Positions 15,210 to 38,882 of a stretch of DNA of 64,000 bases are shown here, one piece after another. Source of the DNA: Eledone cirrhosa (taxonomy: Eukaryota); contig OZ024740.1 in NCBI GenBank assembly GCA_964016885.1, forward strand, positions 392,460,001 to 392,524,000. Direction: 5' to 3'. The notes under the pieces are model-generated. The model did no database searches and was not told where the DNA came from. It saw nothing but the letters and a program-made list of their open reading frames with translations. How positions within the stretch are numbered: the stretch's first letter is position 1; every line of letters starts with the position of its first letter. The position numbers and the translations under genes are program-made.

Positions 15210-15291
15210 TATCATCATCATCATCATTTAACGTCCATCTTCCACGCTTGCATGGGTTTGGACGGGAATTTTCCCACTTGAGGCAAGATTG
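15210..15291 (-). mobile_element. displaced 3' terminus and (GAT)n tail of the RTE LINE at 38883-40791
   Basis: Matches the reverse complement of 13098-13162 up to GGCAAGATTG, where the Merlin TIR begins; the sequence resumes after 38882. Confidence 0.85.
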
Positions 15292-15523
15292 GGCACTACA
15301 ACGCTATTAGCTGTCAGTCCAAACAGGCGAGGGTGACGTCACTCGTCAAACATCGTTTATTTCCGTATTACTACCACGCGTAAGTGGAGTTTTCACGCGT
15401 TTTTTGGAGAGAGAGGGGGGGGGGGGGGCGAGACTTAAAAGGGCCAAATTAGAAAACAAACAGAAAACAAGTCATGGTTATAAAGCATATCGATGTAAGT
15501 GGAGTTACTTAAATGAAAATATA

Positions 15524-15542
15524 GGTGGCCCTTAAAAGGGCC
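15524..15542 (-). promoter_or_regulatory. histone-mRNA-type 3' stem-loop downstream of the Merlin transposase
   Basis: Minus strand GGCCCT-TTTA-AGGGCC-ACC, ~134 nt after the transposase stop, in sense orientation; a truncated duplicate lies at ~15434-15450. Confidence 0.6.
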
Positions 15543-15676
15543 AAATTAGAAAAATTTAAGTTAATTAGAAAACAAGTCATGGTTATCAAATAAATTTGAT
15601 TTATTCATTTATATTTTCATTATTCACCAACCTTATTCAAAAGCATGTTTAGAAACATTTTTTTCACCAACTTTAT

Positions 15677-16554
15677 TCAAATGCATGGAATCAGATGACG
15701 GATATGTTCTAATAACTTTTGGAAAATTTCTCCTTTAAATTCATACGGCCACATGAATTCAATGAGATGGGTTTGAAGCAAATTTCTGGCTGTCCCGTTT
15801 TCCCTTTTATTCCTATTTTTTACGTGTTTCCACAAGCATTCTATGTGATTCGTTGTGGCAAATGTTACTGGATCAACAAAATTGATCGAATGGTTCACCG
15901 TCAAATGTTGATAGCCTAGCTGATCGATCGTATTATAGGAACGCCATAGATCAGATATTATGGTTGTCCCTGGCAATATACGATCCTGTATAATGGTTAA
16001 AAGTGTCTCCGCTGTCCTGTCTTCTACTGCTACTAAAATACATCTTCTGGTACTTCTTTCTAAAGCACCAAAAACCCACTGTGTTTTCACAGAATAGCCA
16101 CGATGGTATTTCCTTCTCACGAATGCGTTTTCATCAATCTCGACAATTCGGTTTGGCCCGCCAAGCTTAATGTTTTGTGCCACATAGTACTCTGCACATA
16201 CATCACCGCAAAAATTTCGCCAATCTGCTACGACCACATTCGCGATACGAGATTTTCTGAAATCTTCTTTTGCCCAAAAATATAATATATCAACTATTTG
16301 TTCACACTTCAAATTGCTATTTTCTAAAAATGTGCCTTTTCTAATAAAAACCTGTTTTCTACATGGTCTTTTACATGACCAGATAATCCCATCTGACATT
16401 TTGTTTCGCTACTTCCAACATACGTTGACTACATGAAGGGCAGACCTTTTGTGTATTCAGAAGTCCTTGAATGTTCAACCAATTGACGGTATCTGCTGTA
16501 GTAGCGGTAGCGATGGTTAATTCCCTTAACACTTGGATATATTATAGAACTCAT
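15677..16554 (-). pseudogene. Merlin / IS1595 (ISXO2-like) DDE transposase, frameshifted near the N-terminus
   Basis: GGPNRIVEIDE, RKYHRG, QWVFG, ILPGTTIISDLWRSY, HLTVNHSINFVDP, TNHIECLW; N-terminal CPSC...WSC..PC zinc ribbon reached via frameshifts from the ATG at 16554. Confidence 0.92.
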
Positions 16555-16829
16555 TTTTCAACTTGCAGATGCGTGTATTATCACAAAGTGAAGATAAAAG
16601 TTTATTTATTTACACGTGGTGTTGGCGATGATTGTTGCTGATTGGTGGGGATTGTCTCCATGGGGACTGTATCCATGCTTTTGAATAAGGTTAGTGAAAA
16701 TAATTTGTTTTCTAAACATTTCATAAATATATAGGGTTGGTGATAAAAATTTGATAACCATAATTTCATTTAAGTTAACTCCACTGTTGGTGAAAATGAC
16801 TTGTTTTTTATATTGATAACCATAACTAT

Positions 16830-16971
16830 GAAAATATGTGACGTCATTCGTCAACCTTCCCTTACTTTCACTTCTGACAGCTAATACCATGAACTGTAAA
16901 AATACAGTTCATGGTATTAGCTGTCAGAAGTGAAAGTAAGGGAAGGTTGACGAATGTCGTCACATATTTTC
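16830..16971. repeat. ~140-bp near-perfect palindrome built from Merlin TIR-like sequence
   Basis: Arms GAAAATATGTGACGTCATTCGTCAACC...CTGACAGCTAATACCATGAACTGTA and its reverse complement, with a 4-nt A loop and one mismatch. Confidence 0.9.
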
Positions 16972-16991
16972 TCGTGTGTGTGTGTGTGTGT

Positions 16992-17808
16992 GCAAATTTC
17001 AATAATATTAAGACACCCTAATGGGGGTTAAACCCCCTATAGTGAAAAGTTTGACCAATAAATGGAACAAGATTTTACGAACTCCTCCTATGGTTTTGGA
17101 GATAGACCCCCATAACCATATATATTCTGAAACTACATTGCCCAGGGTACTTGTATAAGTATATTTCATTTTAATCAAAGGGTTCATCGGGGGCACAAAA
17201 CGGCCGCTGAAACTTTACCTTCGATTTATATGAAATTTAAACCATAGGTAAACGACAAGATATGATGCCTATTCACATCATTTCAGCAAATTTCAATAAA
17301 ATTACAATACCCTATTGGGGGTTAAACCCCTATTAGGGTTGGTTCACCAGGGGGCACAAAATCCCCGCTGAAAATGTTTTCGGTTCGATTTATATGCAAT
17401 TTAAACCATAGATAAATGAAGAGATATGATGCCTATTCACAAAATTTCAATACTATAAGATACCTTAATGGTGGTTAAACCCCCAATTAGGGTTCCCCAG
17501 GGGGGTACAAACCCCCGCTGAAAACTTTTCCCTTTCGATTTATATGAAACTTAAACCATAGGTAAATGACAAGATATGATGCCTATTCACAAAAAAATTA
17601 TTTACAAGAAACAAAATAATAAGATTTAATAATGCAATTTTGATTTGATATATTACAAAAAATGATGTTTTCCAATTTTTCATGCATTATATTTTACATT
17701 AAGTAATATTGAGTTTTTCTCCATAAATTATATCAGATTTAAAATCAATCATCATTTTCTTACAAAAAAAATGTGTGAAACGCAGCAAGGCGCTGGTAAT
17801 TCGGCTAG
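16992..17808 (+). mobile_element. non-autonomous Helitron-like 3' part with ~155-bp tandem repeats
   Basis: Three to four copies of GGTTAAACCCC...CCGCTGAAA...TTCGATTTATATG...GATATGATGCCTATTCAC; ends with hairpin CAGC-AAGGC-GCTG then CTAG|T. Confidence 0.65.
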
Positions 17809-17857
17809 TATATATATATATGTGAGTGTGTGTATATATATATGTGTGTGTGTGTGT

Positions 17858-18830
17858 GTTCATTATGTAGGAGAGGTGTAGGTAGAAACTCCATCCTCTG
17901 CCCCATATGCAAACTATGGGTACACAAGAGATGTAGTGGGATCTCAGGAAGTTTAATTAAGAATGTAGGCTTTACATGTAGCAGTTACACCAGGACAGTA
18001 AGCAGCAAACAATCACTGAAAACAAGTGACATCAAAGTCTGGGAGGACTTGGTAAAAATACCGAATTAGCAGCGGAGGGGGGGGGGGTCTGAAAGAACGG
18101 GATGGAAGAAGTTGAGGGAGCTACTGCCACAGCTGGATACAAAAGGCTTTTCCCTCGGAATAAAAGGTAGACTGTATCATGTGTGCATATGAACGGCAAT
18201 GTTACATGGTAGTGAGAGCTTGGCGCTGTGTGTAGAAGACTTGTGTAGATTAGAAAGGAATGAAGCTTGTATGCTCCGATGGATGTGTAATAGTAATATA
18301 CGCGAACAGCAAAGCATAAACAAACTGAAAGAGAAACTAGGCATAAGAGGAATCAAATGTTGTGTGCAGGAGAGGAGATTATGTTGGTATGGACATGTGA
18401 TTCGTATGAAGGATGACAGCTACATAAAGTCCCAGAAAGACTTGAGATGAAGTGATAAAAGCCGACCTTGCCCAATTGCACCTCTGAAAGGCAATGACAC
18501 AGGACCAAGATCTCTGGCGTCATGAGGTAATACAGAAACCCCAATTTCCCACGGGCCCAGGCCAAGGCTGAAACATACATACAGTATGCACCACTCCATC
18601 CCACCCGCCAATATATCTTTCATGAGAACAGGCTGAAACACTGTAAAGTGGTCGTGATGGTGACACGGTAAAAAACACCCAGTCCACACTGTAAAGTAGT
18701 CGTGGAGGAATCACAACAAAAAACACCCAGTACTCATTGTAAATGAGCTTGGCATTAGGAAGGGCATCCAGCTGTAGAAACCAAGCCAAAATCAGTTCTT
18801 TTTGAGCAAAACATGGTCACCTGACCTAAC
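17858..18830 (+). mobile_element. RTE-clade LINE 3' fragment with 3' UTR
   Basis: CRRGVGRNSILCPICKLWVHKRCSG and MLHGSE...LERNEACMLRWMC...ERRLCWYGHV. Confidence 0.85.
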
Positions 18831-18845
18831 ATTGCCAACAATAGA

Positions 18846-19217
18846 AGGCACATGGCTCAGTGGTTGCAATTGAAAGGTTGTGAGTTTAATTCTCGGACCA
18901 GGTGATGTGTTGTTTCCTTGAGCAAGACACTTTATTTCACATTGCTCCAGTTTACTCAGCTGTAGAAATGAGATGATAGGACTGGGGTCCCTATCATTCC
19001 ACTATAAAGTGGTCGTGGAGGTGCCACAGCAAAAAAAAAAAAAAGAACACCCAGCATTTACTGTAAATGAGGTTGGTGTTAGGATGGGCATCCAGCTGTA
19101 GAAATCAAGACAGAATCAGTTCCCGTATGAGCAAGACAGGGTCAGCCGACTGGACACTGCCCTCAACAGGATAACCCATGCTAGCGTAGAAGAACTGACA
19201 TAAAATGATGATGATGA
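18846..19217 (+). mobile_element. tRNA-derived SINE with conserved core and RTE-type tail
   Basis: A-box TGGCTCAGTGG, core CCTTGAGCAAGACACT, RTE 3' tail ending ATGATGATG; inverted partner at 19625-19925. Confidence 0.75.
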
Positions 19218-19289
19218 AATATAACAGAGTTTTATAGCTTGCTTGAAGCATTGATGAATAGGAAACACAAATTTAAATTTTGAAAACCA

Positions 19290-19620
19290 AGTTGAGGGCC
19301 TTTGAACCCCAGGCTATTGCAATAGCTGCTCCTGATTTTAGATGTGGAAGACGGGACCTTTGGTACGACACAGTGACGTCCTGTTCGAGAATTGGTCCAG
19401 CTCTCGATCCTAAAGTTTGGTTTTAGTTCCCCCCCAGGATTTTCCATATGTATATCATTGCATATCTCTCCCATCTTCATTCCGAGGAGTAGAGTTTCAG
19501 TTCTTTTAGACTCTCCCAGTAGTTTATCTCCATCGTGGCAACCTTCTTGGTGTAGCTTCATTGGATTGCTTCAAGCTCCATGGTTAGTTTGATACTATGG
19601 GGGTGACCACAGCTGGGACA
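19290..19620 (-). mobile_element. CR1/L2-like LINE RT C-terminal fragment
   Basis: Decayed WSP motif and NSRTGRHCVVPKV...YCNSLGFKGPQL resemble CR1-type C-termini. Confidence 0.55.
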
Positions 19621-19624
19621 TTCA

Positions 19625-19925
19625 TTTCATTTTACGTCCACTTTTTCCCTGCTTGCAAGGGTGGGACGGGAACTGATTCTGGCTTGATTTCTACAGCTGG
19701 ATGCCCTTCCTAACACCAACCTCATTTACAGTGTGGGCTGGGTGCTTTTTCGCCATGGCACCTCCACGACCACTTTGCAGTGGAATGATAGGGACCCCAG
19801 TCCTATCATCTCATTTCTACAGCTGAGTAAACTGGAGCAATGTGAAATAAAGTGTCTTGCTCAAGGAAACAACACATCACCCGGTGTGAGAATTGAACTC
19901 ACAACCTTTCGATTGCAAGGCCAAT
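19625..19925 (-). mobile_element. tRNA-derived SINE (same family as 18846-19217, opposite strand)
   Basis: Reverse complement of the 18860-19110 body. Confidence 0.8.
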
Positions 19926-19940
19926 GCTCTCTCTCTCTCG

Positions 19941-19969
<29 letters not shown>

Positions 19970-19976
<7 letters not shown>

Positions 19977-20920
19977 ATAATAATACATATGAAGACTAAA
20001 ATCTAAAGAGGCCTCAATAGGGATAAATATATATCAATTATATAAGAACCGTAGAGCAAATATTCATTAAAATAACAGATTAAAGTTTAAGCAAAGAATT
20101 GGCTGCTTTCACCCTTAATGGGATCTTCTGAAACTAAAAAAAAATAAATAAATCTGTGAACGCAGAAGTAAATATTTCGAAAAACATTGCAACCGAAGGA
20201 AGACAGGAAGACGATACTTTGGTTCGTGGAGACGTAGTTTTAGGTATTTCTTCCTGCTTGGTACGGGTATGTTCTTTGTAGAAATATTCAGATGTTTCTG
20301 CATGATGAATATAAGTCAATAGAGCCAAATAGTAATAATAAATTTGAAGACTAACATCCAAAGAGGGCTCGATAAGGATAAATATATATCAAATATATAA
20401 GAACCGTCGAGCAAATATTTATTAAAATAACAGATTAAAGTTTAAGCAAAGAATCAGCTGCTTTCACTCTTAATGGGATCTTCTGAAATTTAAAAAAAAA
20501 AAAATCAAAAAAAAAAAAAAAAATCAATCTGAATGCAGAAGTAAATATTTCGAAAAACGTTGCAACCGAAGGAAGACAGGAAGACGATGCCTTGGTTCAT
20601 GGAGACGTAGTTTTAGGTATTTCTTCCTGCTTGGTACGGGTATGTTCTTTGTAGAAATATTCAGATGTTTCTGCATGATGAATGTAAGTCAATAGAGTAC
20701 TCAATCAAGGGAGCCAAATAGTAATAATAATAAATTTGAAGACTAACATCCAAAGAGGGCTCGATAAGGATAAATATATATCAAATATATAAGAACCGTA
20801 GAGCAAATATTTATTAAAATAACAGATTAAAGTTTAAGCAAAGAATCGGCTGCTTTCACCCTTAATGGGATCTTCTGAAACTAACAAAATCAATCTGTGA
20901 ACGGAGAAGTAAATATTTCT
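19970..20920. repeat. tandem array of a ~360-390-bp unit (about 2.6 copies), Helitron-related
   Basis: Units start near 19972, 20331 and 20720; the block AAAATAACAGATTAAAGTTT...GGAAGACGAT also occurs at 45419-45580 inside a Helitron. Confidence 0.85.
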
Positions 20921-21049
20921 AAGCCGACCTTTCTCAATTGCACCTCACAAGGGACTAACACACGACCATGACCTCTGGGTCACACAGTAATACAGAAAAC
21001 TCGACTGTCCACAGGAACATATAGACAATATTTGTTTTCCTTTGTTTTT

Positions 21050-22368
21050 TTATGTCCTATCAACTAATCCAACCTCCAAAATGCTTGACTATTTTTTTAG
21101 CATATTAACAACAAATATGATTTCCACTGCAATTAAAAATGACTAGCTTTGTGAATGGTTTTTCCACCCACTTTCTTGCCTTCATTTTTCTACAAAGTTA
21201 ATCATTGATAGGTTTCAAAGTTATATTCATTCATAATATGTGAAAAAAGTAGTCAACTGCGAGCATTTGTGTGATGTAAATGGTAGGAGTAGGTGTTCTT
21301 TAATAAATTTACCATATGGTGAAGTATGGTTATATGTCCTATCAACTAATCCGACCTACAAGATGCTCGCAGTGTATTATGCTTTTAGCATATTAACAAA
21401 AAATATGACTTCCGCTGCCATAAAAAATGACTAGCTTTGTAAATGGTATTTCCACCCACATCCTCCCTTTTTTCTACAAAGCTAGTCATTTTCATCAGGT
21501 TTCCATGTCATAACCATTGATAATATGTGCATAAAATAGTAATTTGCGAGCACCTTTTATGTCAAATTGGTTGGTAAGCACAAAAAAAAAAAAACAATTG
21601 CCAGATGAAAATTTGTCACACCAAAATCAATAGCTTGGTGTGATGTAGTATGGTGTGGTTTGGTGAGGTTTCTACAAAGATAGTCATTTTCGACAGGTTT
21701 CCATGGCATAATTATTGATAAGTAGAAAAAAATAGTCAATTGGGAGCACCTTTAATGTCAGATTGGGTGGTAAGCACACACACACAAAAAAAAAAAAAAA
21801 AGGAAACGGGAAGAAAATGTTTCACACCAAGATCAATAGCTTGGTGTGATGTAGTATGGTGTAACTTGGTATGGTGTGGTTTGGTGAAGTTATGAAATGG
21901 AAACCAATTGTAAACGATAGATTCCCATGTCATATTCATTGATAATGTGGGAAAATAGTCATTTGCAAGCACCTTTGATGCTAGTTTGAGGTAGTAAACA
22001 CAAAAAAAAAAAAAAAAAAAAGCAGGTAGCAAATTTGTCACATTGATATCCATACCATGGTGTGATGTAAATGGTACGAGTAGGTCTTTTGTAATAAATT
22101 TACCATATAGTGAAGTATGGCTATGGTGTGGATTGGGGTAGGTTAATGTGCTGTGGTGTGCTTTGTTATAAGTGAGGATTTAAATTTCCACTTTGAGTTA
22201 TGTTAGAAAATGGCTAGCTTTGTAAATGGTATTTCCACCCACATCCTCCCTCTTTTTTCTACAAAGCTAGTCATTTTCATCAGGTTTCCATGTCATAACA
22301 ATTGATAATATGTGCATAAAATAGTAATTTGCGAGCACCTTTTATGTCAAATTGGGTCGTAAGCACAC

Positions 22369-22399
<31 letters not shown>

Positions 22400-25300
22400 C
22401 CAGATGATAATTTGTTGCACCAAAATCAATAGCTTGGTATGATGTAGTATGGTGTGGTTTGGTGAAGTTTCTACAAAGATAGTCATTTTCGACAGGTTTC
22501 CATGGCATAATTATTGATAAGTAGAAAAAAATAGTTAATTGGGAGCACCTTTAATGTCAGATTGGGTGGTAAGCACACAGACAAAAGAAAAAAAAGGAAA
22601 CGGGAAGAAAATGTTTCACACCAAGATCAATAGCTTGGTGCCATGTAACTTGGTATGGTGTGGTTTGGTTTGGTGAAGTTATGAAATGGAAACCAATTGT
22701 AAACGATAGATTCCCATGTCATATTCATTGATAATGTGTGGGAAAATAGTCATTTGCAAGCACCTTTGATGTTAGTTTGAGGTGGTAAACACAAAAAAAA
22801 AAAAAAAGAAAGCAGGTAGCAAATTTGTCACATTGATCTCCATACCATGGTGTGATGTAAATGGTAGGAGTGTGTGTTTTGTAATAAATTTACCATATAG
22901 TGAAGTATGGTTATGGTGTGGATTGGGGTAGGTTAATGTGCTGTGGTGTGCTTTGTTATAAGTGAGGATTTAAATTTCCACTTTGATTTATGTTAGAAAA
23001 AAATTTTCATTCATTTTTGCATGTGCTATCAACTTCCAAGATGCTCGCAGTGGACTATGCTTTTAGCATATTAACAAAAAATGACTAGCTTTGTAAATGG
23101 TATTTCCACCCACATCCTCCCTCTTTTTTCTACAAAGCTAGTCATTTTCATCAGGTTTCCATGTCATAACAATTGATAATATGTGCATAAAATAGTCATT
23201 TGCGAGCACCTTTTATGTCAAATTGGGTGCTAAGCACAAAAAAAAAAAGAAATTGCCAGATGAAAATTTGTCACACCAAAATCAATAGCTTGGTGTGATG
23301 TAGTATGGTGTGGTTTGGTGAAGTTTCTACAAAGATAGTCATTTTCGACAGGGTTCCATGGCATAATTATTGATAAGTAGAAAAAAAAAAGTCAATTGGG
23401 AGCACCTTTAATGTCAGATTGGGTGGTAAGCACACACACACAAAAAAAAAAAGGAAACGGGAAAAAAATGTTTCACACCAAGATCAATAGCTTGGTGCGA
23501 TATAGTATGGTGTAACTTGGTATGGTGTGGTTTGGTTTGGTGAAGTTATGAAATGGAAACCAATTGTAAACGATAGATTCCCATGTCATATTCATTGATA
23601 ATGTGTGGGAAAATAGTCATTTGCAAGCACCTTTGATGTTAGTTTGAGGTGGTAACCACGAAAAAAAAAAAAAAAGCAGGTAGCAAATTTGTCACATTGA
23701 TCTCCATACCATGGTGTGATGTAAATGGTACGAGTAGGTCTTTTGTAATAAATTTACCATATAGTGAAGTATGGCTATGGTGTGGATTGGGGTAGGTTAA
23801 TGTGCTGTGGTGTGCTTTGTTATAAGTGAGGATTTAAATTTCCACTTTGAGTTATGTTAGAAAAAAATTTTTTCCTTCATTTTTGCATGTGCTATCAACT
23901 TCCAAGATGCTTGCAATGGACTATGCTTTTAGCATATTAACAAAAAATATGACTTCCGCTGCAATAAAAAATGACTAGCTTTGTAAATGGTATTTCCACC
24001 CACATCCTCCCTCTTTTTTCTACAAAGCTAGTCATTTTCATCAGGTTTCCATGTCATAACAATTGATAATATGTGCATAAAATAGTCATTTGCGAGCACC
24101 TTTTATGTCAAATTGGTTGGTAAGCACAAAAAAAAAAAGATTGCCAGATGAAAATTTGTCACACCAAAATCAATAGCTTGGTGTGATGTAGTATGGTGTG
24201 GTTTGGTGAAGTTTCTACAAAGATAGTCATTTTCGACAGGTTTCCATGGCATAATTATTGATAAGTAGAAAAAAAAAAGTCAATTGGGAGCACCTTTAAT
24301 GTCAGATTGGGTGGTAAGCACACACACAAAAAAAAAAAAAAAGGAAACGGGAAGAAAATGTTTCACACCAAGATCAATAGCTTGGTGCGATGTAGTATGG
24401 TGTAACTTGGTATGGTGTGGTTTGGTTTGGTGAAGTTATGAAATGGAAACCAATTGTAAACGATAGATTCCCATGTCATATTCATTGATAATGTGGGAAA
24501 ATAGTCATTTGCAAGCACCTTTGATGTTAGTTTGAGGTGGTAACCATAAAAAAAAAAAAAAAGCAGGTAGCAAATTTGTCACATTGATCTCCATACCATG
24601 GTGTGATGTAAATGGTACGAGTAGGTGTTTTGTAATAAATTTACCATATAGTGAAGTATGGCTATGGTGTGGATTGGGGTAGGTTAATGTGCTGTGGTGT
24701 GCTTTGTTATAAGTGAGGATTTAAATTTCCACTTTGATTTATGTTAGAAAAAAAATTTTCATTCATTTTTGCATGTGCTATCAACTTCCAAGATGCTTGC
24801 AATGGACTATGCTTTTAGCATATTAACAAAAAATATGACTTCCGCTGCAATAAAAAAATGACTAGCTTTGTAAATGGTATTTCCACCCACATCCTCCCTC
24901 TTTTTTCTACAAAGCTAGTCATTTTCATCAGGTTTCCATGTCATAACAATTGATAATATGTGCATAAAATAGTCATTTGCGAGCACCTTTTATGTCAAAT
25001 TGGTTGGTAAGCACAAAAAAAAAAAGAGATTGCCAGATGAAAATTTGTCACACCAAAATCAATAGCTTGGTGTGATGTAGTATGGTGTGGTTTGGTGAAG
25101 TTTCTACAAAGATAGTCATTTTCGACAGGTTTCCATGGCATAATTATTGATAAGTAGAAAAAAAAAAGTCAATTGGGAGCACCTTTAATGTCAGATTGGG
25201 TGGTAAGCACACACACAAAAAAAAAAAAATGAAACGGGAAGAAAATGTTTCACACCAAGATCAATAGCTTGGTGCGATGTAGTATGGTGTAACTTGGTTT

Positions 25301-26270: not shown

Positions 26271-26460
26271 AGCATGGTGTGATGTAGTATGGTGTAGTTT
26301 TTTATGGTGTGGTTTGGTTTGGTGTAGTTTGGTATGGTTTAGTTTGGTGTAGTTATAACATGGAAACCTATCATAAATTTACCAAGGTATGGTATAATCT
26401 GGTTTGGTGTAGTGTAGGTTAGTGTAGTGTGGTGTGTTATTGTGTTGCATCGTATAGCGT
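26270..26460. repeat. degenerate (GTGTG/GTTTG)n pentamer repeat
   Basis: 5-bp periodicity; similar blocks at 30165-30385, 32195-32265, 32560-32928 and 34065-34345. Confidence 0.8.
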
Positions 26461-26554
26461 GATTCTCTTTAAATTAAAATCATTAAAATGTAATGCCTAT
26501 CTTCTATATCTTAAAGAGTGACCTTAAATGTGATTGCAAATGACTTTTTTCTCT

Positions 26555-29500
26555 GGGTTAATGTTAGATTTAGGGTTAGTGTTAGGGTAAGTTTAACTGT
26601 TAATGGTAAGTTTATTGTTAGTGACTGTGTTACTGTTAGCATTACTGTCACTGTTAGTGTTACTGTAACTGTTTGCGTTACTGTCTGCATCAGCGTTAGC
26701 ATTTGCATAAGCGTCTATGTAAGCTTTTGTGTTAGTGTCTATGTAGACTGGTGTTAGCATCTGTGTTAGTGTTTGCGTAAGTGTCAGCATCAGCGTCTGC
26801 ATTGGTGAGTGATTGTGTCAGCATTTCCCTTAGCGTCCGAGTCAACATTAGTGTAAGCATTAGTGTTTGTTTCAGTGCCTGCGTCTACGTCAGCTTCTGA
26901 GTCACCATTATCATTAGCGTCCGCGTCAGCACTTGTGTCAGTGTCAGCGTTTGCATCAGCGTGCACGTCAGCATTTGCATTAGTGTTTGAGTTAGTGTTT
27001 GCGTCAGCGTTTGCATTTGTGCAGGGGTTAGCATTTGTGTCAGCATCTGCATCAGCATTCACATTAGCATTAGCGTTTGCGACAGCATTTCCTTTAATGT
27101 CTTTGTCAGCATTTCCGTTAGCGTCTGTGTCAGCGTGTACGTTAGCTTCTACGTCAGCGTTTCCGTTAGCATCTGTGTCAGTGTTTCCGTTAGCTTCTAC
27201 GTCAGCGTTTCCGACCGCATCTGTGTCAGCGTCAGTATTTACATCTACATCAGCGTCAGCGTTTCAGTTAACGTTAGTGTTTACGTTAGCGTCTGTGTCA
27301 GCGTTTATGTTAGAGTCTGTGTCAGCGTTTACGTTAGCTTCTACGTCAGCGTTTCCGTAACATCTACGTCAGCGTTTTCCGTTAGCATTGGCGTTTCCAT
27401 TAACCTTTCCTGTGGCGTCCGCATCATTGCAGCGTCTGCATATCCCATGTAAGCGTTAACTTCAGCATTTGCGTCAGCGTTAGCGTTAGCCTTAGCCCTA
27501 GCGTCCGCATTCGCATTTGCTTTAGCGTCAGCATACACGTCAGCGCCCGGCAATACTGCCTCAACATTTGCGTCAGCGTTAGCTTGGCTTTGGCTTCAGC
27601 AATCCGCATCAGCAATTGCGTTTTGGAGATCAGCTTCGGCGGTAAGGGTAAACGCTAACTTCTACGCCTGCTTCTACGTAACAACTACGTCAGAGTTTTG
27701 TTAGCTTCTACGTCAGCGTTTACGTTAGCTTCTACATCAGCATCTACATTAGCTTCTACGTCAGCGCTTACATTAGTGTCTGTGTCAGCGTTTGTGTTAG
27801 CTTCTACGTCAGCGTCTGTATTTACATCTACATCAGCGTCAGCGTTTACATTTGCGTCTGTGTCAGCGTTTACGTTAGCTTCTACGTCATCGTTTACATT
27901 AGCGTCTGCGTCATCGTTTACGTTAGCGTCAACGTGTGTTAGCATCTGTGTCAGCGTTTATGTTAGTGTCTGCGTCAGTGTTTATATTAGCATCTGCGTA
28001 AGTGTTTACGTTAGCATGTGGTAACGTGTGTTAGCATCTGTGTCAGCGTCTGCGTCAGCATTTTCATTAGTGTTTGCATCAGTGTTTCCTTTAGCTTCTA
28101 CGTCAATGTTTACGTCTGCGTTAAGGTTCCCATTAGCATCGCTGTCATCGTTTGCATCAGCATTTGCGTTTGCTTTAACATCTGCATCAACATTTGCGTC
28201 TGTGTTTGCATTAGTGTCTGCATTTGCTTTAGTGTTTGTATCAGCGTGAGCATTTGTGTCAGTGTCCACGTCAGCGTTAGAGTGAGTAGCATTTACATCA
28301 GCGTGTGCATCAGTCTTTGTCAGCATTCGCCTTTGCACCTGCAACAGTATTCACCTTAGTGTTTGTGTCAGCATAAGCGATTGTGTCAACATTTGCGCTA
28401 GCGTTTGTGCCAGCCATCTTCGTCAGTGTCAGCGTTAGTGTTTCCATTAGTGTTCGTGTTTGATTTTGTATTAGTGTTAGCATTTTTGTTAGTGTTAGTG
28501 TTTGTGTTAGTGTTCAGGTTAATGTTGACTTGGTTTTCTGGTTAGTGTTAGTTTTCAGATTAGGGCTCGTGTTACTTTTAGTGTTAGTGCTCAGGTTAGT
28601 GGTTTATGGTAGTGTTAGTGTTCAGGTTAATGTTCGTGTTAATGTCAGTTTTAGTGTTAGTGTTCAGGTTAGTGTTTACGGTAGTGTTAGTTTTAGTGTT
28701 AGTGTTATTTTTTCCATTAGTGTTAGTCTTTGTTTTTCTGTTAATGTTAGTGTTTGTTTTAGTGTTGAGGTTAATGTTAGCTTAGTTTTCTGGTTAGTAT
28801 CAGTTTTCGTGTTAGTTTTAGTGTTAGTGTTCAGGTTAGTGTTAGTGTTTTTTTTAGTGTTAGTTTTTATGGTAATGTTAGTGTTAGTGCTCAGATCAGT
28901 GTTACTGTTTATGGTAGTGTTAGTTTTGGTGCAAGTGTTTAGGTTAATGTTAGTTTTAGTGTAAGTGTTCAGGTTAGTGTTAATGTTAGTTTTAGTGTTA
29001 AGGTTAGTGTTAGAGATTGTGTTAGTGTTTGTTTTTGTGTGAATATTTGTGTTAGTATATCTGTTAGCATAAGTGATTGATGTTTCCATTAGTGTTAGTG
29101 ATTGTGTTAGCGTTAGTCTTTGTTTTTGTGTTAATGTTAGCATTAGTATTTCTGTTAGTGTTAGCATGAGTGTTTGTGTTAGTGTTCAGGTTAATGTTAG
29201 CTTAGTTTTCAGGTTAGTGTTAGCGTTCAAGTTAATGTTAGTTTTAGTGTTAGAGATTGTGTTAGTGTTTGTTTTTGTGTTAATATTTGTGTTAGTATCT
29301 CTGTTAGTGTTAGTTTTAGTGTAAGTGTTCAGGTTAGTGTTAAAGTTAATGTTAGTGTTAGTTTTAGTGTTAAGGTTAGTGTTAGAGATTGTGTTAGTAT
29401 CTCTGTTAGCATTAGTGTTTGATGTTTCCATTAGTGTTAGTGATTGTGTTAGCGTTAGTCTTTGTTTTTGTGTTTGTGTTAAGGTTAGCGTTAATGTTAG

Positions 29501-30125
29501 CATTAGTATTTCTGTTAGTGTAAGCATTAGTGTTTATGTTAGTGTTCAGGTTAATGTTAGCTTAGTTTTCAGGTTAGAGTTAGTGTTCAAGTTAATGTTA
29601 GTTTTAGTGTTAGTGTTGAGGTTAGTGTTAGAAATTGTGTTAGTGTTTGTTTTTGTGTTAATATTTGCGCTAGTATCTCTGTTAGCGTTAGTGTTTGTTT
29701 TAGTGTTGAAGTTAATGTTAGCTTAGTTTTCTGGTTAGTATCAGTTTTCAGATTAGTGTTTGTGTTACTTTTAGTGTTAGTGCTCAGGTCAGTGTTAGTG
29801 TTTATGGTAGTGTTAGTTTTAGTGCTAGTGTTCAGGCTAATGTTTGTGCTAATGTTAGTTTTAGTGTAAGTGTTCAGGTTAGTGTTAGTGTTTGTATTAG
29901 TGTTTACGGTAGTGTTAGTTTTAGTGCTGATGTTAGTGTTAGTGTCAGTTTTAGTGTTGGTGTTCAGGTTAGTGTTTGTGTTAGTTTTCTATTTAATGTT
30001 AGTTTTCAGATTTTGTGTTTGTGTTAGTTTTCATGTTAGCGCTAAGTTCACTGTTAGAGCATGTGTGAGTGCAAGTGTTAGGGTAAGTTACTTTTAAAGT
30101 TCGGTTTTAGCTTAAAGTTAGGTTT
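26555..30125 (+). repeat. 3.6-kb degenerate hexamer array (TCAGCG/TTAGCG then TTAGTG), telomere-like
   Basis: 6-bp periodicity with strong GT-strand bias; TTAGGGTTAG near 26570 and TTAGGG near 30078; a ~340-bp higher-order duplication (29080 vs 29421). Confidence 0.9.
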
Positions 30126-30460
30126 TCTACTTTCCAGGAAAAAAGTTGATCCTCTCTAACTCGAATGGTGTGATATAGTGTGGTAAAGTATAGTGTTTCA
30201 TAGTCTTGTGTGGTGTTGTCTATTGTTGTATAGTGTAGTATGGTATATTGTTTCATAGCATGGTCTGATGTGAGGTTGTACAGTGTTTCGTAGTGTGGTG
30301 TTGGATAATGTGGTATGGTATAATGTTTGTCAGTGTGGTGTGGCATGGTATGGTATAGGTTGATGTAGTGTGGCTTAGTTTGATTATAATAATACAAATA
30401 ATAATAACAATAATAATAGTAATAATAATTGTTCTTCTTGTTCATTTTCTTTGTTTTCTT

Positions 30461-30695
30461 CTGTGCCTTTGACTTCTTCTATGCCTTTGACTTCTTCTAT
30501 GCCTTTGACTTCTTCTATGCCTTTGACTTCTTCTATGCCTTTGACTTCTTCTATGCCTTTGACTTCTTCTATGCCTTTGACTTCTTCTGTGCCTTTGACT
30601 TCTTCTGTGCCTTTGACTTCTTCTGTGCCTTTGACTTCTTCTGTGCCTTTGACTTCTTCTGTGCTTTTGACTTCTTCTGTGCTTTTGACTTCTCT
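30461..30695. repeat. 18-bp minisatellite (CTRTGCCTTTGACTTCTT) x ~13
   Basis: Near-perfect tandem copies. Confidence 0.95.
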
Positions 30696-31136
30696 GCCAT
30701 CTAAATACCAAAAACGAAGAATGTAAAACATATATGTTGCCTATCTCTCAGACTTTACAAAGTGCTGAGGAGATAAAATTAATTTAAAGAGCAGTGTGCT
30801 CATGCACTGTGATGCTATAATGTAGCTTATAAGCTATTTCATAACTAAAAAACAATGTCAGACATCAACAAAAGTATATACAAATATCTTTGAATATTTA
30901 AGTTAAACTTAAATAGATCGTATCTACAGGTCATTAGGTTATGGCTGAACTAAGATCATATCTATAAATCATTAGGTTTAGACTGAACTGAGATCATACT
31001 TTCTTCTTCTTTTCGTCATCTTCGTTTCCCCATGTCTTCTTTGTCTTTGTTATCATTTTCATTTTAGTCGCCTGCTTCGTCGTCTTTTTCTTCTTTTCCA
31101 TCTAAATATAAAAAAAAATTGTAAACAAATATATAG

Positions 31137-32111
31137 ATTTCTATTTATTGCCACTAGGGCGCAAAAGAAGGGGACAAATACAAGGGGGGAGTTTTCACAA
31201 AAAGGCGAGTAAAGAAAACAAATAACAAATATAAAATTAACAATAAAGTCCTCAATAGGGAGGGGGCGTGTGGGGGGTTGCACCCCCCCCCGAAAAAAGT
31301 CTGCAACCCCTTCTCCTCAGGAGCACAGAGAGAGGGTGCTCCCTCGTTCCTTCCTTTTTTCTACCTACTTTCACCCACCTTTCATAAAAACGACTGGGGT
31401 TGAGCATCTCTCTCCATCCTGATCCTTCTTCCGAAATGATATCGGAAGAAACAGATCAGTTGTTGGCCAGAGAGAAAGGTGCCTGACCCGAGCCCTTTCA
31501 GACGCATCCACCATACAACCTCCTTTTTACACACAGAAATACCGCCTCTCCATTTTTGAAGGGGGAGGCGGCTTAATCGTTACAATGGCCTCGGTTGTCA
31601 ACCAGATCGGTCCCACCCGTGATAGCAGTCGTTCGACATAGCCCCACAGATCGGCTACGCCCGAGCAGTGTACCAATGCGTGTGCAACGGTTTCCTCGTC
31701 GCACATGCATCTGGGACAGATCTTTTTGGCGGGGTCCCTACCCGGGCGCCCGTGTCTGTAGAGCTTTTCTCGAATGGGTAGAGCCCCTCGGTAGCACTGC
31801 CAGGCCAGGGACTTCTGGAAGTTGTTCATAGGTCCTGGGCTGAATGTCCTACCGAACAGGCTGGCCAGTTCGTCTTCCTCCATGTCTAGAGCTTCTCCGA
31901 GGGCGGCGTCGCACCTGCTGCATATCAGCCCTCTATAGAATGTCGCGGTGGAGTCTCCACTGATAACCAGGTCCACCTGCCAGAGGGCCGTGAGCGCCTA
32001 GGCACACTCAGTGTGCCAGGCGCCCAGTTTTCTCGGTCTTTGCTTGACCCAGGATTGCAGCTCGGTGAGTGAGACGAGTCTGGGAAAGGTTGTCTCACAA
32101 ACGGGGCCCAC
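31137..32111 (-). mobile_element. 5'-truncated L1/Tx1 LINE with 12-bp TSD
   Basis: zf-RVT-type C-terminus FQKSLAWQCYRGALPIREKL...CPRC...ETVAHALVHC; AATAAA at the 3' end; TSD ACAAATATATAG at 31125-31136 and 32112-32123. Confidence 0.9.
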
Positions 32112-32927
32112 ACAAATATATAGCTGATCTCTCAGACTTTCACGAAACACCGAGGAGATACAGTTAATATAATGAGTGGGGAGCTCATATATATATATGG
32201 TATAGCATGGTGTTATGTGGTCTGGTGTGGTACAACATTGTGTGATGTGTGGTATGATATGGTGAGGCAGAGGAGGGGGACAATGTTAGATTAATGTTAC
32301 AATACACATATAACATCCACATGTGATGAGAAAGGGGAAACAGTGTTTAACTAATTTTAACATTACATGTAGCATCCATCTACAGGTGATTAAGTTAAGA
32401 CTGAGGTGTAATCATATGAAAAGGTCAATTTAAAACTACACTGAGATTCTGCTTAAAATGATGGTCAATGAAGTGTTTACTTACTCAGATCCTTTGAAAT
32501 AACTTTCTTTCTCTTACTGTAACTGGACATACCTACGAAATAGAAAACAGTCGAATAGACAGTGGTGTGGTGTAGTGTAGTGGACAGTGGTGTGGTGTAG
32601 TGTAGTGGAGTGTGGTTTAGTGTAGTGGACAGTGGTGTGGTGGAGTGGAGTGTGGTTCAATGTAGGGTGGGGGATATGGTGTAGTGGAGTGTAGTGGGAT
32701 GTAGTGTGGTAGCATGTGGTGTGATGACATGTGGTGTGATGTGGCGTGGCGTGGTGAAATGTGATGTAATGAAATGTGGCATGGCGTGGTGAAATGTAAT
32801 GTGATGTGATGAAATGTGGTGTGGCGTCGTGAAATGAGGCGAGACAAGACGAGACGTGATGTGATATGGTGTGGTGTGATGTGGTGAGATATGGTGTGGT
32901 GTGGTGTGGTGTGGTGTGATGTGATGT

Positions 32928-34062
32928 GAAATTTTTTCATCCTATTTTTCATGTGCTATCAACTAATCCAATCTCCAAGATGCTTGAAACTGACTTTTTC
33001 CCCCCAGGAAAACGGCGTGGTGAGGTGGTTCCCCCTTCACCCGGATAACCCCTGCTTACTCGGAATTTTCTCTTTGATTCTATTTTCATGCATTATCAGT
33101 GAATATGACTTCCAAACCAGTCAAAAACAACTAGCTTTGGAGAAAGAGGAGGGAGAGGGGAAGAGTTTTGCAGATCTACACTCCACTCACATGTTGTGGG
33201 ACTTAATCATTTTCGGTATATTTCCTGTGCTATTTCCTACGCTATTTCCTATGCTAATTCCTACGCTATTTCCTACGCTATTAATTAATCTGACCTCCTA
33301 GATGGTTCCAACCAACTTATTTTCCTGGGTAGGGTTTAGGGTTGGGGTAACGTTTAGGGTTTAGTTTTAGGGTTGGGGTAATGTTTAAGGACTAATTTTA
33401 GGGTTGGGGTAATGTTTAGGGACTAGTTTTAGGGTTGGGGTAAAGTTTAGGGTTTAGTTTTAGGTTTGGGGTAAAGTTTAGGGTTTAGTTTTAGGTTTGG
33501 GGGTAATGTTTAGGGTTTAGTTTTAGGGTTGGGGTAAAGTTTAGGGTTTAGTTTTAGGTTTGGGGTAATGTTTAGGGTTTTGTTTTATGGTTGGGGTATA
33601 GTTTAGGGTTTAGTTTAAGGGTTGGGGTAATGTTTATATTTAGATTTAGCTTGGTTTGGTTTAGATTTAGAGTTTAGGGTTGGGGCTAGATTTAATTTTA
33701 TGTTTAATTTAGTTTTAGTTTCCAAATCCCAGAAAAAAAATTGATTCGGAGCAAATAGAAGGTCAGATTAGTTGATAGCACTCAAAAGGAGACCGAAGAA
33801 AAATCATTAGGGTATATATCTGAAAAACGACAATGGTTTTTCCACCTGCTTTACCCCTCCTTTTTCCTAGAACAACTAATCATTTCCAACTGGTTTGGAG
33901 GTCATATTCGTTGATAACATACGAAAAATCTTAGAGAAAACTCTGGGGTTAAATGAGAGAAGTGCATCCACCTAAGTTTTCCATGAAGAGAGAGTCAATA
34001 ACAAACATCTTGGAGTTCGGATTAGTTGATAACACATGAAAAAAAGATTATGAAAAAATTTT
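32928..34062. repeat. foldback structure: ~350-400-bp imperfect inverted arms around a telomere-like array
   Basis: Left arm TTTTTCATGTGCTATCAACTAATCCAATCTCCAAGATG mirrors right arm CATCTTGGAGTTCGGATTAGTTGATAACACATGAAAAA; AATATGAC.TCCAAACCAGT and TAATCTGACCT are also mirrored. Confidence 0.8.
33328..33720 (+). repeat. ~30-bp tandem repeat of TTTAGGG/TTGGGG telomere-like motifs
   Basis: Repeated TTTAGGGTTTAGTTTTAGGGTTGGGGTAA(T/A)G. Confidence 0.9.
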
Positions 34063-34553
34063 GGCTGTTATGTGGTGTGGAGTAGTGTGGTGTGTTTTTA
34101 TGTGGTTTGATGTAGTGAGGTGTGTTTTTATGTGGTGTGTTATGGTGTTATGTGGTGGGGAGTAGTGTGGTGTGTTTTTATGTGGAGTGTTGTGTTGTAG
34201 TGAGGAGTGGTGTGTTGTGGTGTTATGTGGAGTAGTGTGTAGTGTTGTATGTTCTTATGTGGTGTGATGAAGTGTGGTGTGGTGCGGTGCACTGCGATGT
34301 GGTGTGGTGCAGTGTGGTGTTGTGTAGTGCGGTGCAGTGAGGTTCTTCATCTTTATCTTTCTCTTCTTCATCTTTGTATTCATCTTCTTTGTTTTGTCTT
34401 CCATCTAAACAAAAAAAAATATATATAAAATATATGTAGCCAATCTCTCAGACTTTTACAAAGCTCCAGGGAGATAAATTTAATATAAGTGGTGTGTTCC
34501 TGAACAGAGATACTACAAAATAGCTTAAAAGCTATATATATATATATATATAT

Positions 34554-34913
34554 AAACGTTTGAATATGTATAATAAAGCCAAAACAATGCAGGTATGGAC
34601 ATAGAAAAAAGAATGCAATTGCATTATAGATACTCTATACTATTATAGATACTCTATACTATTTCCTGTCAGCATGGCTTGGCAAGATATTTAGAACGCT
34701 GGTTTGAGACCTTTATTTCCCTCTGAAGAAGAGATATTATCTCGAAAATTAAGGACATTTAAATAAATCTAAGGTAAAAGACGATTTGTCAACAATATCT
34801 TTTGCAAATGCATTCTTTTTTCTATGTCCATACCTGCATTGTTTTGGCTTTATTATACATATTCAAACGTTTAGACCTCATTACACAATGCTTCAAGTGA
34901 ACTATAACCTCCT

Positions 34914-34915
<2 letters not shown>
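34554..34915. mobile_element. Penelope-like terminal fragment with 70-bp inverted repeat
   Basis: 34554-34623 mirrors 34803-34872; central CTGAAGAAGAGATATTATCTCGAAA motif; flanked by (TA)n on both sides. Confidence 0.5.
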
Positions 34916-34969
<54 letters not shown>

Positions 34970-35915
34970 AATATACACGGGTGTGTATGATTGTGTATAG
35001 AAGATTATATTAATAAAAGGAATTCCAACTTTGTCTGATTTACTCGTTTTATTTACAATCCTTTAAAATTATAATGGTATTAGAATGAAATAGCATGGTA
35101 GAATATTAAGTGTTAATTGAACAAGTAATTTCATGCTTTTACAATCTTCAGGTTCATATCTGTGGTGACAGTCAAGTTTACAATTTTCAACTGTAATGAG
35201 ATGGGAAAAATGTTGTGCCTTATATACAGTGAAAAGCGGCTACAGAATGCTAAATTTTGCAAACTGTATTTCGATCAATAGGTGTGTAGTTTCACTGGAT
35301 TACTGAAGCTGATTGGTTTAGGCATCACAGTTGATTGGGCATGTCTAACGACTTCTATTTGGCCCTATTCAAAGCATCAATTGTTTTGCTATTTTTAGAA
35401 ATGATGAAAATAGCATTTTCTAGGTCAATATATACATATGTTTCTATATGTCTCTTGTGTTGAAAAGGAGGTCAAGTATGTTAAAAATCACTGAATAATT
35501 GCTCCGAAGACTCCAAACCTCGGTTTGGAAGAAACAATTGTAAGCAAATAAATGATTTAAACAGAACTTTGATTCATGTAATCTCTATATACATTCATAT
35601 ATACACTTCTACGAAATGTAATGTAAAAATACCATTTTCTTCTTGTCTCCCCACCCTTCGGTTCATTCATCCATTTATCTGTCTAATCGCCCAGAATCCA
35701 ATCCTACTTTCTCAATGCTATTCTATAATTCTGTCTGGCTGTTCTAAATAATCTTGTGTATTTTAAAATTCCAGTATATCGCTTGTTACTGTTATATGCT
35801 TTATTTAAAACTTCTCCTCGCTCGCTAACTACCCCATACCACTCCCACCCGCCCCACTCTCCACCATTATTATTTGGACCAATCATAAGTCAGCGGCATA
35901 TGCTATCACTTCTGG

Positions 35916-38138
35916 TTGCTTTTCGATATGATGGATGGACTAAGGAATTCTGGAGAGTCTGAAGAATCTGGACACTCAGAGACAATGTCAAAGATAACGA
36001 CAAATTCACCTCATGCTGCCGGACGAAAGGGCAAGGAGTCCTCTTTGTTTCGGCCGCGAATGGCCAACATAACCCCAACCCCATCCCGCTCACCCCTCCC
36101 CGCGCCCCACCCACCAAACGCAATCCAAAACTTCAGAGTTGGTACCATGAATGTAGGCACCTTAAAAGGTCGCTCTAACGAGGTTGTAGAAATGCTTGAA
36201 CGTAAGGAGGTTGATGTTTGCTGTATCCAAGAGACCAGGTGGAGGGGCGGGTCTGCTAGATTCATTGTGGGTAAAAAACGATGCTATAAGCTTTTCTGGG
36301 TGGGAAATGACAATGGGCTGGGTGGGGTAGGAATCATGTTAGCAGAAAAATGGGTGGATAAGATAATAGACGTAAATAGAGTGAACGACAGAATAAGTAA
36401 AATAAGACTTGTTCTAAATAGAACTACTGTGACAGTAATATCTGCGTACGCACCCCAATCCGGACTGCCTGGCGCTATAAAAGACAGATTCTACGAGACA
36501 CTGATGCTCACTGCCTCCCAATTAACCGACAGTGACTATATAATTATTGCTGGCGACCTAAATGGTCACGTTGGACAACATTGTGACGGCTATGACGGAA
36601 TCCATGGAGGCTATGGGTTTGGTACTAGAAATGAGGAAGACTCCAGACTCTTGGAATTCTGTGACGCAAATAACCTAACTATCTGTAACACTAACTTCAA
36701 AAAGCGAGACAATCACTTCATCACCTACAGATCAGGGGAACATACCAGCCAGGTAGATTATATCCTTACCAGAAGACGTGACAGAGTGTCTGTTGTAAAC
36801 ACTAAATCCCTCCCCCATGAAGAATGCACCTCTCAACATAGACTCATAATTAGCGACCTCATAGTCAGGACGAGACGTTCTCGACAACAGAAGAGGACTA
36901 TCCTCAGGAGAAAAATATGGAAGCTAAAGGACCCCACAACCAGTAATAAATTTAAAAGCATATTACTTGATGCTTTCGACAGTAAGGAAGAGCAATTAGA
37001 GTCGTACAATATAGAGGAACAGTAGGGTTTCCTCAAAGCAAACCTGCTGATGGCGACAGATGAAGTCTGCGGCTGGAGCAGGCCTATAGGCAGGAGGAGA
37101 GTAACGTGGTGGTGGAACAGTAAGGTGGAGGAGTCAATTAAGGCCAAAAAGCAGGCTTGGAAAGTATGGCGGGATGGGGGAAGTAGAGAAGACTATCAAG
37201 TGGCCAGGAGGGAAGCTAGGAGACAAGTGTACTTCGCAAGAAGGGAAGCAGAGGAAAGAAAGTTCAAGCATGTTCTACAACACGAGGACCAAAAACGTGA
37301 GGTGTTCAGGATTGCTAGGCAGTGTGTCAAGGAAAACCGTGATATTGTCGGGGAGAAGTGTGTCCTTAAGGATGATGGTGTACTTGCCATCACTGACGCT
37401 GATAAGGTAGCTTGGAAGTGTCACTACGAAAGGCTACTAATAGAGGGACCAGCAGTGCTAGTTGAAGGTAGTATAATAAGTAAGGCAATCAAAGATATGA
37501 AGACGGGTAAGGCGGCTGGGCCTTCGGAAATAGTTGCTGAAATGGTGAAAGCATCTGGAACGGTGGGACACACTATGGTCACCCGGATAGTAAACCAAGT
37601 CATACAGAATGGGGTTGTTCCGAAGGACTGGCGTAGCAGCATCATCATTAACTCTAAAAGAGTAAAGGAGATGCCCTAGATATGGGTAACTATAGAGGCA
37701 TTAAATTAATCGACCAGGTCATGAAGGTCACAGAAAAAGTAATAGCGCAACTAATCAGAGAGCGAATTGATCTAGATGAAATGCAGTTCGGGTTTGTGTC
37801 AGCTAAAAGTACCACAGACGCTCTTTTCATTGTACGGCAACTACAGAAGTGCCTAGCTAAAAGTAAACCCCTATACTTAGCTTTTGTCGACTTGGAGAAA
37901 GCCTTTGACAGAGTCCCCCGTTCCATTATCTGGTGGGCTCTTAAAAAACTAGGTGTTGATGAATGGCTTGTGAGAGCTATACAAGCCATGTATAAAGAAA
38001 CAGTCAGCAAGGTTAGAATTAACAATGAATATAGTGAAGAGTTTAGCATAAAAGTTGGTGTTCACCAGGGCTCCGTTCTTAGCCCCCTACTATTTATTAT
38101 TGCCCTTCAGGCTATAATAGTGGAGTTCAAGACCGGCT
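35916..38138 (+). pseudogene. RTE-clade LINE ORF (APE endonuclease plus RT N-half), 3'-truncated
   Basis: GTMNVGTLKGR, CIQETRW, ISAYAPQ, GDLNGHVG, SQVDYIL, SQHRL (APE); NYRGIKL, MQFGF, FVDLEKAFD, GVHQGSVLSP (RT); one stop at 37023 and a frameshift near 37655; ends before the YADD motif. Confidence 0.95.
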
Positions 38139-38708
38139 TAATAAAATACAATACAGAGGTAATAGAAATTAAATAAATACATACACGCATGCAAATAAGT
38201 ACATACACAAGCATACGCGAAAACACATGCCATAGGTATACAAAACCACGAACATATAACTATGTGTGTGTGTGGGTGCGTGTATACAAATAAATAAATA
38301 ATTAAATAAACGTATATAAATAAATAAACGTAACGGCGATGAATTAGTTTTGCGAGGTTTTTTATATGAAATCGTGTGTCGAAACAAATATTGTTATACT
38401 TGGGGAGGGTCATTTTTGTGTAATATTGCCAGAATTAATAACAGAATACACTCACTGTTTGGTTGGTTTTCCAACAATAAATAAACGTATATAAATACAT
38501 ATATATACATACATACACACATATATATATGTATGTATGAAACTTAATTATTCGTGTAACGTTTTTAATAATTTTTTGATATTACTTACCAATTTCTTAT
38601 CTTTTGCTTTTATTGTCCTGCATTTGTTGATTTGCGTTATTCCCTGGAGAAAAATGGCGCCAAACTTTTCCCTTTGAAAGAATAATGTGATTGTGTTCAC
38701 GTGATATA

Positions 38709-38874
38709 TAGCTGTCAGTCGTGAAAGCAGGCGAAGGTGACGTCATTCGTCATCGTTTATTTCCGTATTACTACCACCAAGTAACTCCACTTACGCGTAG
38801 TAGTAATACGGAAATAAACGATGTTTTGCTTTCATCGGCTGCTTTCGACTGACAGCTAATAGCGTTGTAGTGCC
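38709..38874. repeat. Merlin right end: direct partial TIR copy followed by the inverted TIR (hairpin)
   Basis: TAGCTGTCAGTC...CATCGTTTATTTCCGTATTACTAC is mirrored by GTAGTAATACGGAAATAAACGATG...GACTGACAGCTA. Confidence 0.85.
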
Positions 38875-38882
38875 CAAGATTG

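Follow-up and report, generated by a model that had tools for sequence, protein, structure and literature searches.

What lies between two short inverted repeats that face each other 23.6 kb apart in the genome of the octopus Eledone cirrhosa, a single mobile element or a small transposon filled with later debris? The locus is found on contig OZ024740.1 (here C1) of assembly GCA_964016885.1, and the stretch analysed, called the window, covers C1:392,460,001-392,524,000 (64,000 nucleotides, zero N) of the 3.0-Gb genome. A previous reading of the letters alone, hereafter the sequence-only reading, had proposed a giant Merlin transposon loaded with satellite and telomere-like cargo. Our analysis indicates that the segment very probably belongs to a family of giant Merlin DNA transposons with many copies, and that it likely moved as one cut-and-paste unit and is likely of composite origin.

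The insertion splits the 3' tail of an RTE element, a long interspersed nuclear element (LINE). The transposon is 23,583 bp long and is bounded by the same 8-mer on both sides, the left target-site duplication (15284..15291, + strand) lying within the RTE tail and the right one (38875..38882, + strand) standing where the tail resumes. On the + strand of the window this 8-mer is present only at these two sites, and its reverse complement is found once, at 13100. The termini start at 15292 and 38874, begin with GG and form perfect terminal inverted repeats (TIRs) of 28 bp; the likeness extends imperfectly to about 100 bp (84.6%). The left end, composed of the TIR and its subterminal region (15292..15600, + strand), is common to all 13 other giants that were fetched whole for comparison with the window copy.

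The flanks 15211-15291 and 38875-38990 are successive parts of one RTE 3' tail, and eight intact copies of this tail join both of them: one at 13011-13180 and seven closer ones in four fetched loci. One intact tail spans both flanks without a gap (96% and 93%) and carries the same 8-mer once. The RTE body carries on along the minus strand from about 39179. These data agree with the sequence-only reading in that the duplication is exact, that an RTE 3' untranslated region is interrupted and resumes, and that both ends belong to one insertion. Its matching termini are also real, with a length of 28 bp instead of 27, and the uninterrupted copy that it cited near 13011 does hold the 8-mer once, but with about 10 extra bases behind it, and closer copies exist elsewhere.

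The family was surveyed with the exact 26-bp end as a marker, in the knowledge that exact words undercount and that some loci hold a word more than once. There are 303 matches in the genome (154 forward and 149 reverse) and none for the reversed control. Positions were obtained for 274 of the 303 sites, which include all 216 sites of contigs C1-C4. On these four contigs, 58 adjacent inward-facing pairs are separated by less than 200 kb: 37 at 15-45 kb, 14 below 3 kb, one at 3-15 kb and six at 45-200 kb. The 37 giant pairs range from 18 to 44 kb, with a median of 28.1 kb. Random placement predicts 0.24 inward pairs at 15-45 kb (maximum 3 in 2000 runs), and neighbours at this distance include no outward-facing and nine same-direction pairs. 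Duplications were sought at all 37 giant pairs; 26 have an exact 8-bp and one an exact 9-bp duplication, while six more have one mismatch and one has two. Among the small pairs that were fetched, miniature derivatives flanked by duplications of their own predominate.

Further exact words gave 105 matches for the cargo and 87 for the left junction of the majority type, which suggests that there are roughly 100-150 copies, or about 0.1% of the genome. Local multiplication was also seen. Four copies at a spacing of 130-215 kb are present both at C5:12.47-13.05 Mb and on contig C211, and these clusters are likely segmental or tandem duplicates carrying one insertion. At C1:140.41-140.44 Mb and C2:164.2-164.4 Mb, successive matches of the cargo word are 6.5-7.5 kb apart, as if an internal block had been duplicated in tandem within copies.

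The interior is collinear with that of the window copy in all 13 whole copies, each of which has private deletions and insertions. In total, 17,515 of the 23,583 bp are present in at least seven of the 13 copies and 22,118 bp in at least three; 658 bp are found in none. By contrast, the 28 flanks (13 copies and the window) yield no cross match between different copies. We regard the giants as a family of mobile units because the same ends, with about 20 kb of ordered interior, recur at many unrelated sites. As in a composite transposon, the interior moves with the outer ends and there is one duplication per unit. The proposal that the interior travels as cargo is borne out by these shared interiors at sites with different target duplications, and the other copies are neither all about 2 kb long nor built of blocks that each carry their own insertion signature.

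When matches with an identity of 82% or more and a cover of 70% or more are compared, the 24 transposase copies differ by a mean pairwise distance of 0.027, and the 11-22 copies of each of five cargo blocks by 0.021-0.039. The tree is star-like and weakly supported. As cargo and transposase both differ by about 3% between copies, the distances point to a single burst of copies. An RTE fragment at 17857-18428 is only 68-78% like the other RTE pieces of the window but about 3% apart among the copies, and so was aboard before the burst; some of the cargo is indeed older than the insertion, as had been suspected. With the Octopus clock given in PMC13282606 (a distance of 0.09 for 25 million years), a divergence of about 1.5% per copy would place the burst some 4-5 million years ago, a rough value that depends on this borrowed calibration. 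Reads from four sequencing runs, compared with positions 14440-19900, gave short contigs only: transposase and cargo bins are covered by contigs from a second sample of this species, two short pieces of cargo come from one other species, and none of the listed pieces spans an element end.

On the basis of its TIRs, target duplications and DDE domain, the family is classified as Merlin, a superfamily related to IS1016 and IS1595. The hallmarks described for Merlin in PMC8101967 are TIRs of 24-462 bp starting with GG and duplications of 8 or 9 bp; the present family shares GG-starting TIRs, 8-9-bp duplications, a DDE_Tnp_IS1595 transposase and internal tandem repeats. The transposase gene of the window (15677..16554, minus strand), which is the chief evidence from inside the element and is not mentioned in the sequence-only reading, is broken. 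Compared with the open 302-aa copy of locus L042 it has deletions of 14, 2, 14 and 1 nt, which sever the catalytic part from the start codon, and a C-terminal frame of 243 aa with the DDE motifs is still open; judged from its frame, this gene is dead. The domain PF12762 (DDE_Tnp_IS1595) is recognized with E values of 4e-18 in the window and 7e-19 in L042, and the three acidic positions D, D and E are present in both and in most of six homologues. Among named proteins, those of Octopus bimaculoides (79%) and O. sinensis (73%) are closest to the transposase.

The zinc-binding domain PF12760 (Zn_Tnp_IS1595) reaches 13.7 bits on the transposase, under the cut-off of 25.4 (E 0.061), yet four N-terminal cysteines are largely conserved; residues 39-64 of L042 form a four-cysteine cluster that resembles the IS1595 zinc ribbon below the Pfam cut-off. 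Merlin and IS1016 are stated in PMC8101967 to be without this domain.

There are two main subtypes of giants. Four of the 37 pairs, the window included, have a left arm with the transposase. The left arm of 32 others is LINE debris (about 5.4 kb in whole copies) without transposase where seen, and one pair is unclassified. A further 20 transposase loci were drawn from the best matches of a transposase search, giving 24 loci examined in all. Of these 20, 14 run on into giant cargo, four are fold-back dimers of about 3 kb and two stop at the hairpin described below; no compact element with an ordinary second end was seen among them. At all 24 loci, the transposase belongs to a giant or to a derivative of one. 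L042, L044 and L058 have an open frame of full length (300-302 aa), and the frame of L059 is full-length but lacks a start codon. The fold-back dimers (L048, C1:45.54; L053, C4:282.85; L054, C2:298.10; L055, C28:102.76 Mb) are bordered on either side by a left-type end. The duplication is exact in two of them and has a single mismatch in a third; a 7.5-kb deletion form has a 9-bp duplication.

Since the gene sits 385 bp inside the left TIR, the family transposase presumably acts on these ends. The 302-aa enzyme would pair the two outer inverted repeats and move the whole unit, and most copies, being without transposase, would be moved in trans by the transposase-bearing subtype. Gap repair, or jumping during replication, may have increased their number and would also account for the mosaic ends, the fold-back dimers and the small derivatives.

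The single Rfam match within the element is borderline: the Histone3 stem-loop (RF00032) at 15503-15547 (minus strand), with 34.0 bits equal to the gathering threshold, 134 nt behind the transposase stop. In 21 of 23 transposase copies the motif follows the stop codon at a distance of 115-159 nt. The palindrome belongs to the subterminal region at either end of the element, occurs in both orientations and in non-coding derivatives, and has 608 exact matches. Because it is also present at both ends and in miniatures, and because an ordinary poly(A) signal lies upstream of it, this is probably a chance resemblance and unlikely to be a working mRNA 3' end. We found no report of a histone stem-loop in a transposase gene in the literature searched.

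How could an element of this size arise? The ends themselves appear to stem from separate smaller ones. The transposase unit is followed by a fold-back hairpin of 142 bp (16830..16971; -81.7 kcal/mol, z -24.8) composed of two inner-end motifs from which the terminal 13 bp of the TIR are missing. It is joined to the cargo through a (TG)n run and probably represents the inner end of the transposase unit in disabled form. The right end is a self-complementary mini-Merlin of about 170 bp (38706..38874, minus strand) with an intact outer TIR and an inner TIR lacking its first ~14 bases. In the majority subtype, the left end has a complete inner TIR followed by the same downstream sequence in 10 of 10 whole copies. 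This inner TIR closes a miniature Merlin of about 340-420 bp in nine of them and is displaced by a 4-kb insert in the other; from its constant context we read it as the trace of one ancestral insertion. A whole miniature Merlin at the start of the majority subtype suggests a composite origin from separate small Merlin elements.

According to this model, small Merlins came to flank repeat-rich host DNA, and transposition relied on their outer ends once the inner ones had been lost or were bypassed. Maize Ac macrotransposons pair their outer ends in the same manner, and one of 28 kb is described as excising and leaving an 8-bp footprint (PMC9910405). We lean towards a natural high-copy animal macrotransposon, in which mini-Merlin ends captured more than 20 kb of gene-free DNA and the giants, rather than compact elements, became the main long mobile form and the source of transposase; we hold this to be slightly more probable than not.

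Several observations weigh against the reading as a giant composite Merlin or against parts of it. Three of the 37 giant pairs have no duplication at all, the duplication of three others is matched only via a second TIR nearby, and one perfect match sits within an AT microsatellite. Two of the giant pairs, located on C3, originated by segmental duplication of two others, and 100 of the 216 exact TIRs on C1-C4 are unpaired. The tree, which has weak support, fails to separate the subtypes. The majority-subtype right end shows no inner TIR, so that a whole smaller element is seen on one side only, and the predicted parent junction, searched with up to one mismatch, has no match. Four end-less satellite regions of C2 (200 kb, no exact TIRs) were considered as the donor and rejected; they are rearranged copies instead.

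The same giant family could also have arisen from one excised Merlin, the cargo being filler DNA acquired by template switching during repair (the Pack-TIR/FoSTeST route). Five copies are mosaics of a majority left end and a window-type right end (C1:5.55, C1:52.71, C3:63.56, C3:252.54 and C4:318.36 Mb). Such mixed ends imply exchange between subtypes, making filler capture during repair possible; together with the fold-back forms they point to template switching in the family, and one right-end type is without an inner TIR. The complete inner TIR with constant sequence downstream of it in all ten majority copies is nevertheless of the kind expected from a composite, as is the truncated inner TIR of the window-type right end. 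The size of known fillers is also unfavourable: for the 370 Pack-TIRs of animals, of which 1.4% are multicopy, PMC8277862 gives a median of 224 bp captured, and its main text does not mention Merlin. We consider this route an unlikely though serious candidate. Animal Pack-TIRs (e.g. Ssk-FB4) and plant Pack-MULEs do resemble the giants as TIR elements with captured host DNA, amplified by repeated transposition; the cargo here is, however, about 100 times longer, a parent copy was not found, and the exon-like blocks are of unknown source.

The cargo itself is an assembly of repeats. The shared unit next to the hairpin (16972..21020, in 10-13 of the 13 whole copies) has internal repeats of 160-260 bp, a 390-bp duplication, debris of RTE and of short interspersed elements, a fragment which we presume to be CR1-like and a 3' end which we take to be Helitron-like. 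The 880-bp satellite (21021..26272) is followed by degenerate hexamer arrays with periods of 6, 12, 18 and 24 (26273..30380), G/T-rich on the + strand and telomere-like; satellite and telomere-like arrays are present within the element as first described. Two acceptor-plus-exon-like blocks rich in K, E and D, with an 18-bp minisatellite, lie at 30381..31136 (minus strand), and a third at about 34343-34420. The part at 32124..34552, found in 10-12 of the 13 copies, consists of GT-rich arrays and of a unit in which inverted arms of 195 bp enclose a 31-bp telomere-like array; the arms are 70% alike and related to the 880-bp satellite.

Two LINE pieces were acquired later. The 3' fragment of a Tx1/L1-like LINE (31137..32123, minus strand; zf-RVT), which has its own 12-bp duplication, is present at four and absent from eight of the 12 whole copies holding the site, and so was inserted in a sub-lineage and then copied along. 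It was considered as a marker for the order of the subtypes and rejected, the transposase-type copy L050 having an empty site. In the same way, the RTE LINE with endonuclease and reverse transcriptase at 35604..38138 (+ strand), which contains stops and is 3'-truncated by a deletion, is found here only in a sub-lineage of copies, which it entered before being copied along. A further insertion (34553..34915), which lies within a (TA)n run and has inverted arms of 71 bp, is present in none of the 13 other copies and is likely a true post-transposition nest. The copies L021 (C1:5.55 Mb) and L027 (C1:84.92 Mb) have private inserts of 4-5 kb in the left arm, with open reading frames (ORFs) that are presumably gag-, reverse transcriptase- and integrase-like.

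No cargo gene was found with Pfam on seven ORFs of the window or in the arrays of 14 copies. The Pfam scan gave transposase and LINE domains only, and no match for the 18-bp-repeat frame or the D/A/N-rich frame; PolB, packaging ATPase, capsid and herpesvirus genes are absent from these seven ORFs, and the ORFs of at least 130 aa of 14 giants were read by eye. It is improbable that the cargo is retained for a function, whether through an unrecognized gene or RNA or because telomere-like or chromatin features help the element to escape silencing. Such a function would be consistent with the three acceptor-plus-exon-like blocks, with the hexamer arrays, which can be read as N/T/D/A-rich peptides, and with the persistence of a size that should cost transposition efficiency (PMC6431247). 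However, the acidic frame of one K/E/D-rich block has a stop in 11 of the 11 copies showing it (the basic frame is open for about 30 codons), and the longest stop-free frame of the hexamer arrays varies from 103 to 330 aa across 14 copies, with no maintained long ORF. Individual copies have lost large parts of the cargo, some of them retaining exact duplications, and the element has only the one borderline Rfam match.

That all of this piled up later inside a small inserted Merlin (about 22 kb of repeats), or results from segmental duplications or assembly errors, has practically no chance of being true: some pieces do fit it, namely the 658 bp private to the window copy, the longer satellite here, the private LINE and long terminal repeat (LTR) inserts elsewhere, the two duplicated C3 pairs and perhaps the four evenly spaced C5 copies, but the same debris with the same breakpoints is found on different chromosomes, with different duplications and unrelated flanks, which refutes nesting for the bulk of the interior. 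Nesting did take place before the burst, as shown by the shared debris, and during it, as shown by the Tx1-like insert.

The giant family is the main carrier of the 880-bp satellite on C1. The satellite is composed of ~200-bp subunits; there are about 5.7 units in the window copy and 0-5.0 in the 13 others. Its word has 328 matches. On C1, 16 of 20 satellite loci are no more than 40 kb away from an exact family end marker, and 18 of 20 when the subterminal motif is accepted as well, whereas the zone within 40 kb of these markers makes up 0.7% of the contig; the dispersal of satellite DNA that had been proposed is supported there. In an end-less copy at C2:12.726-12.747 Mb (L126-L128), in which no TIR was found, the array reaches about 21 kb. 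Rearranged relatives at C2:10.6, 11.67 and 12.70 Mb have one common breakpoint pattern and look like segmental duplicates.

Large or repeat-bearing Merlins are not new. Internal tandem repeats in Merlins, and their possible role in the spread of proto-satellites, have already been proposed (PMC8101967), and Merlins of 10-14 kb are already in Repbase, which calls for caution over novelty. In the Repbase table of that paper, which gives no lengths, the largest repeat coordinates are those of zebrafish Merlin-1_DR and Merlin-2_DR, reaching about 10.3 and 13.7 kb; by these coordinates, the present family is about twice as long as the longest Merlins listed. It differs from the zebrafish elements by its size of 18-44 kb, its captured LINE debris and the inner ends of other elements. 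For recently active Merlins of O. vulgaris, PMC13282606 reports 11 insertions with a total of 28,998 bp, an average of about 2.6 kb. In the literature searched, which did not extend to Repbase and Dfam themselves, no Merlin family of more than 20 kb is reported.

As in maize Ac/Ds macrotransposons and bacterial composite transposons, the outer ends of two neighbours would move the DNA between them. The maize cases are alleles in maize stocks and depend on a hAT enzyme, and bacterial composites usually carry selected genes (PMC9587614). The present case is, in contrast, a natural animal family of dozens to more than 100 copies in which no cargo gene was found. The foldback-flanked composite elements of Drosophila are a further precedent. 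KolobokP, a composite-like group rich in molluscs, is similar in that its ends are small TIR elements able to occur alone; as described in PMC9587614, its terminal repeats are direct, measure about 450 or 660 bp and enclose coding sequence that includes a homing nuclease, whereas the giants have two unlike ends and a non-coding interior. Polintons, Teratorn, large Helitrons and the 16-20-kb CACTA elements of Chondrus are of the same size class; according to PMC6431247, the large Helitrons owe their size to rolling-circle read-through and the others to many ORFs. Here, the only element-encoded protein found is the 302-aa transposase.

In the view given in PMC6431247, the efficiency of cut-and-paste transposition drops steeply once the cargo exceeds about 6 kb, and the existence of natural giants is put down to the useful genes that they carry. 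With dozens of copies of 18-44 kb, clean duplications and no cargo gene found, this size limit can be tested in a natural family. If the macrotransposon model is correct, a 302-aa enzyme moved units of about 25 kb more than a hundred times within a few million years, seeding a new satellite across chromosomes. The open transposase copies are candidates for a small vector enzyme with a large cargo. The family also illustrates in detail how a satellite is spread by a transposon and afterwards expands locally. Repeat pipelines would, we expect, split such a class into LINE, satellite and simple-repeat labels.

Outside the element, the window contains a near-perfect palindrome of 68 bp at 54763-54830, a 38-bp minisatellite at 59115-59714 (15.8 copies, 96%) and a 350-bp direct repeat (97%) at 58614-58960 and 61884-62233; the two copies of the latter are about 3.3 kb apart and may be LTRs.

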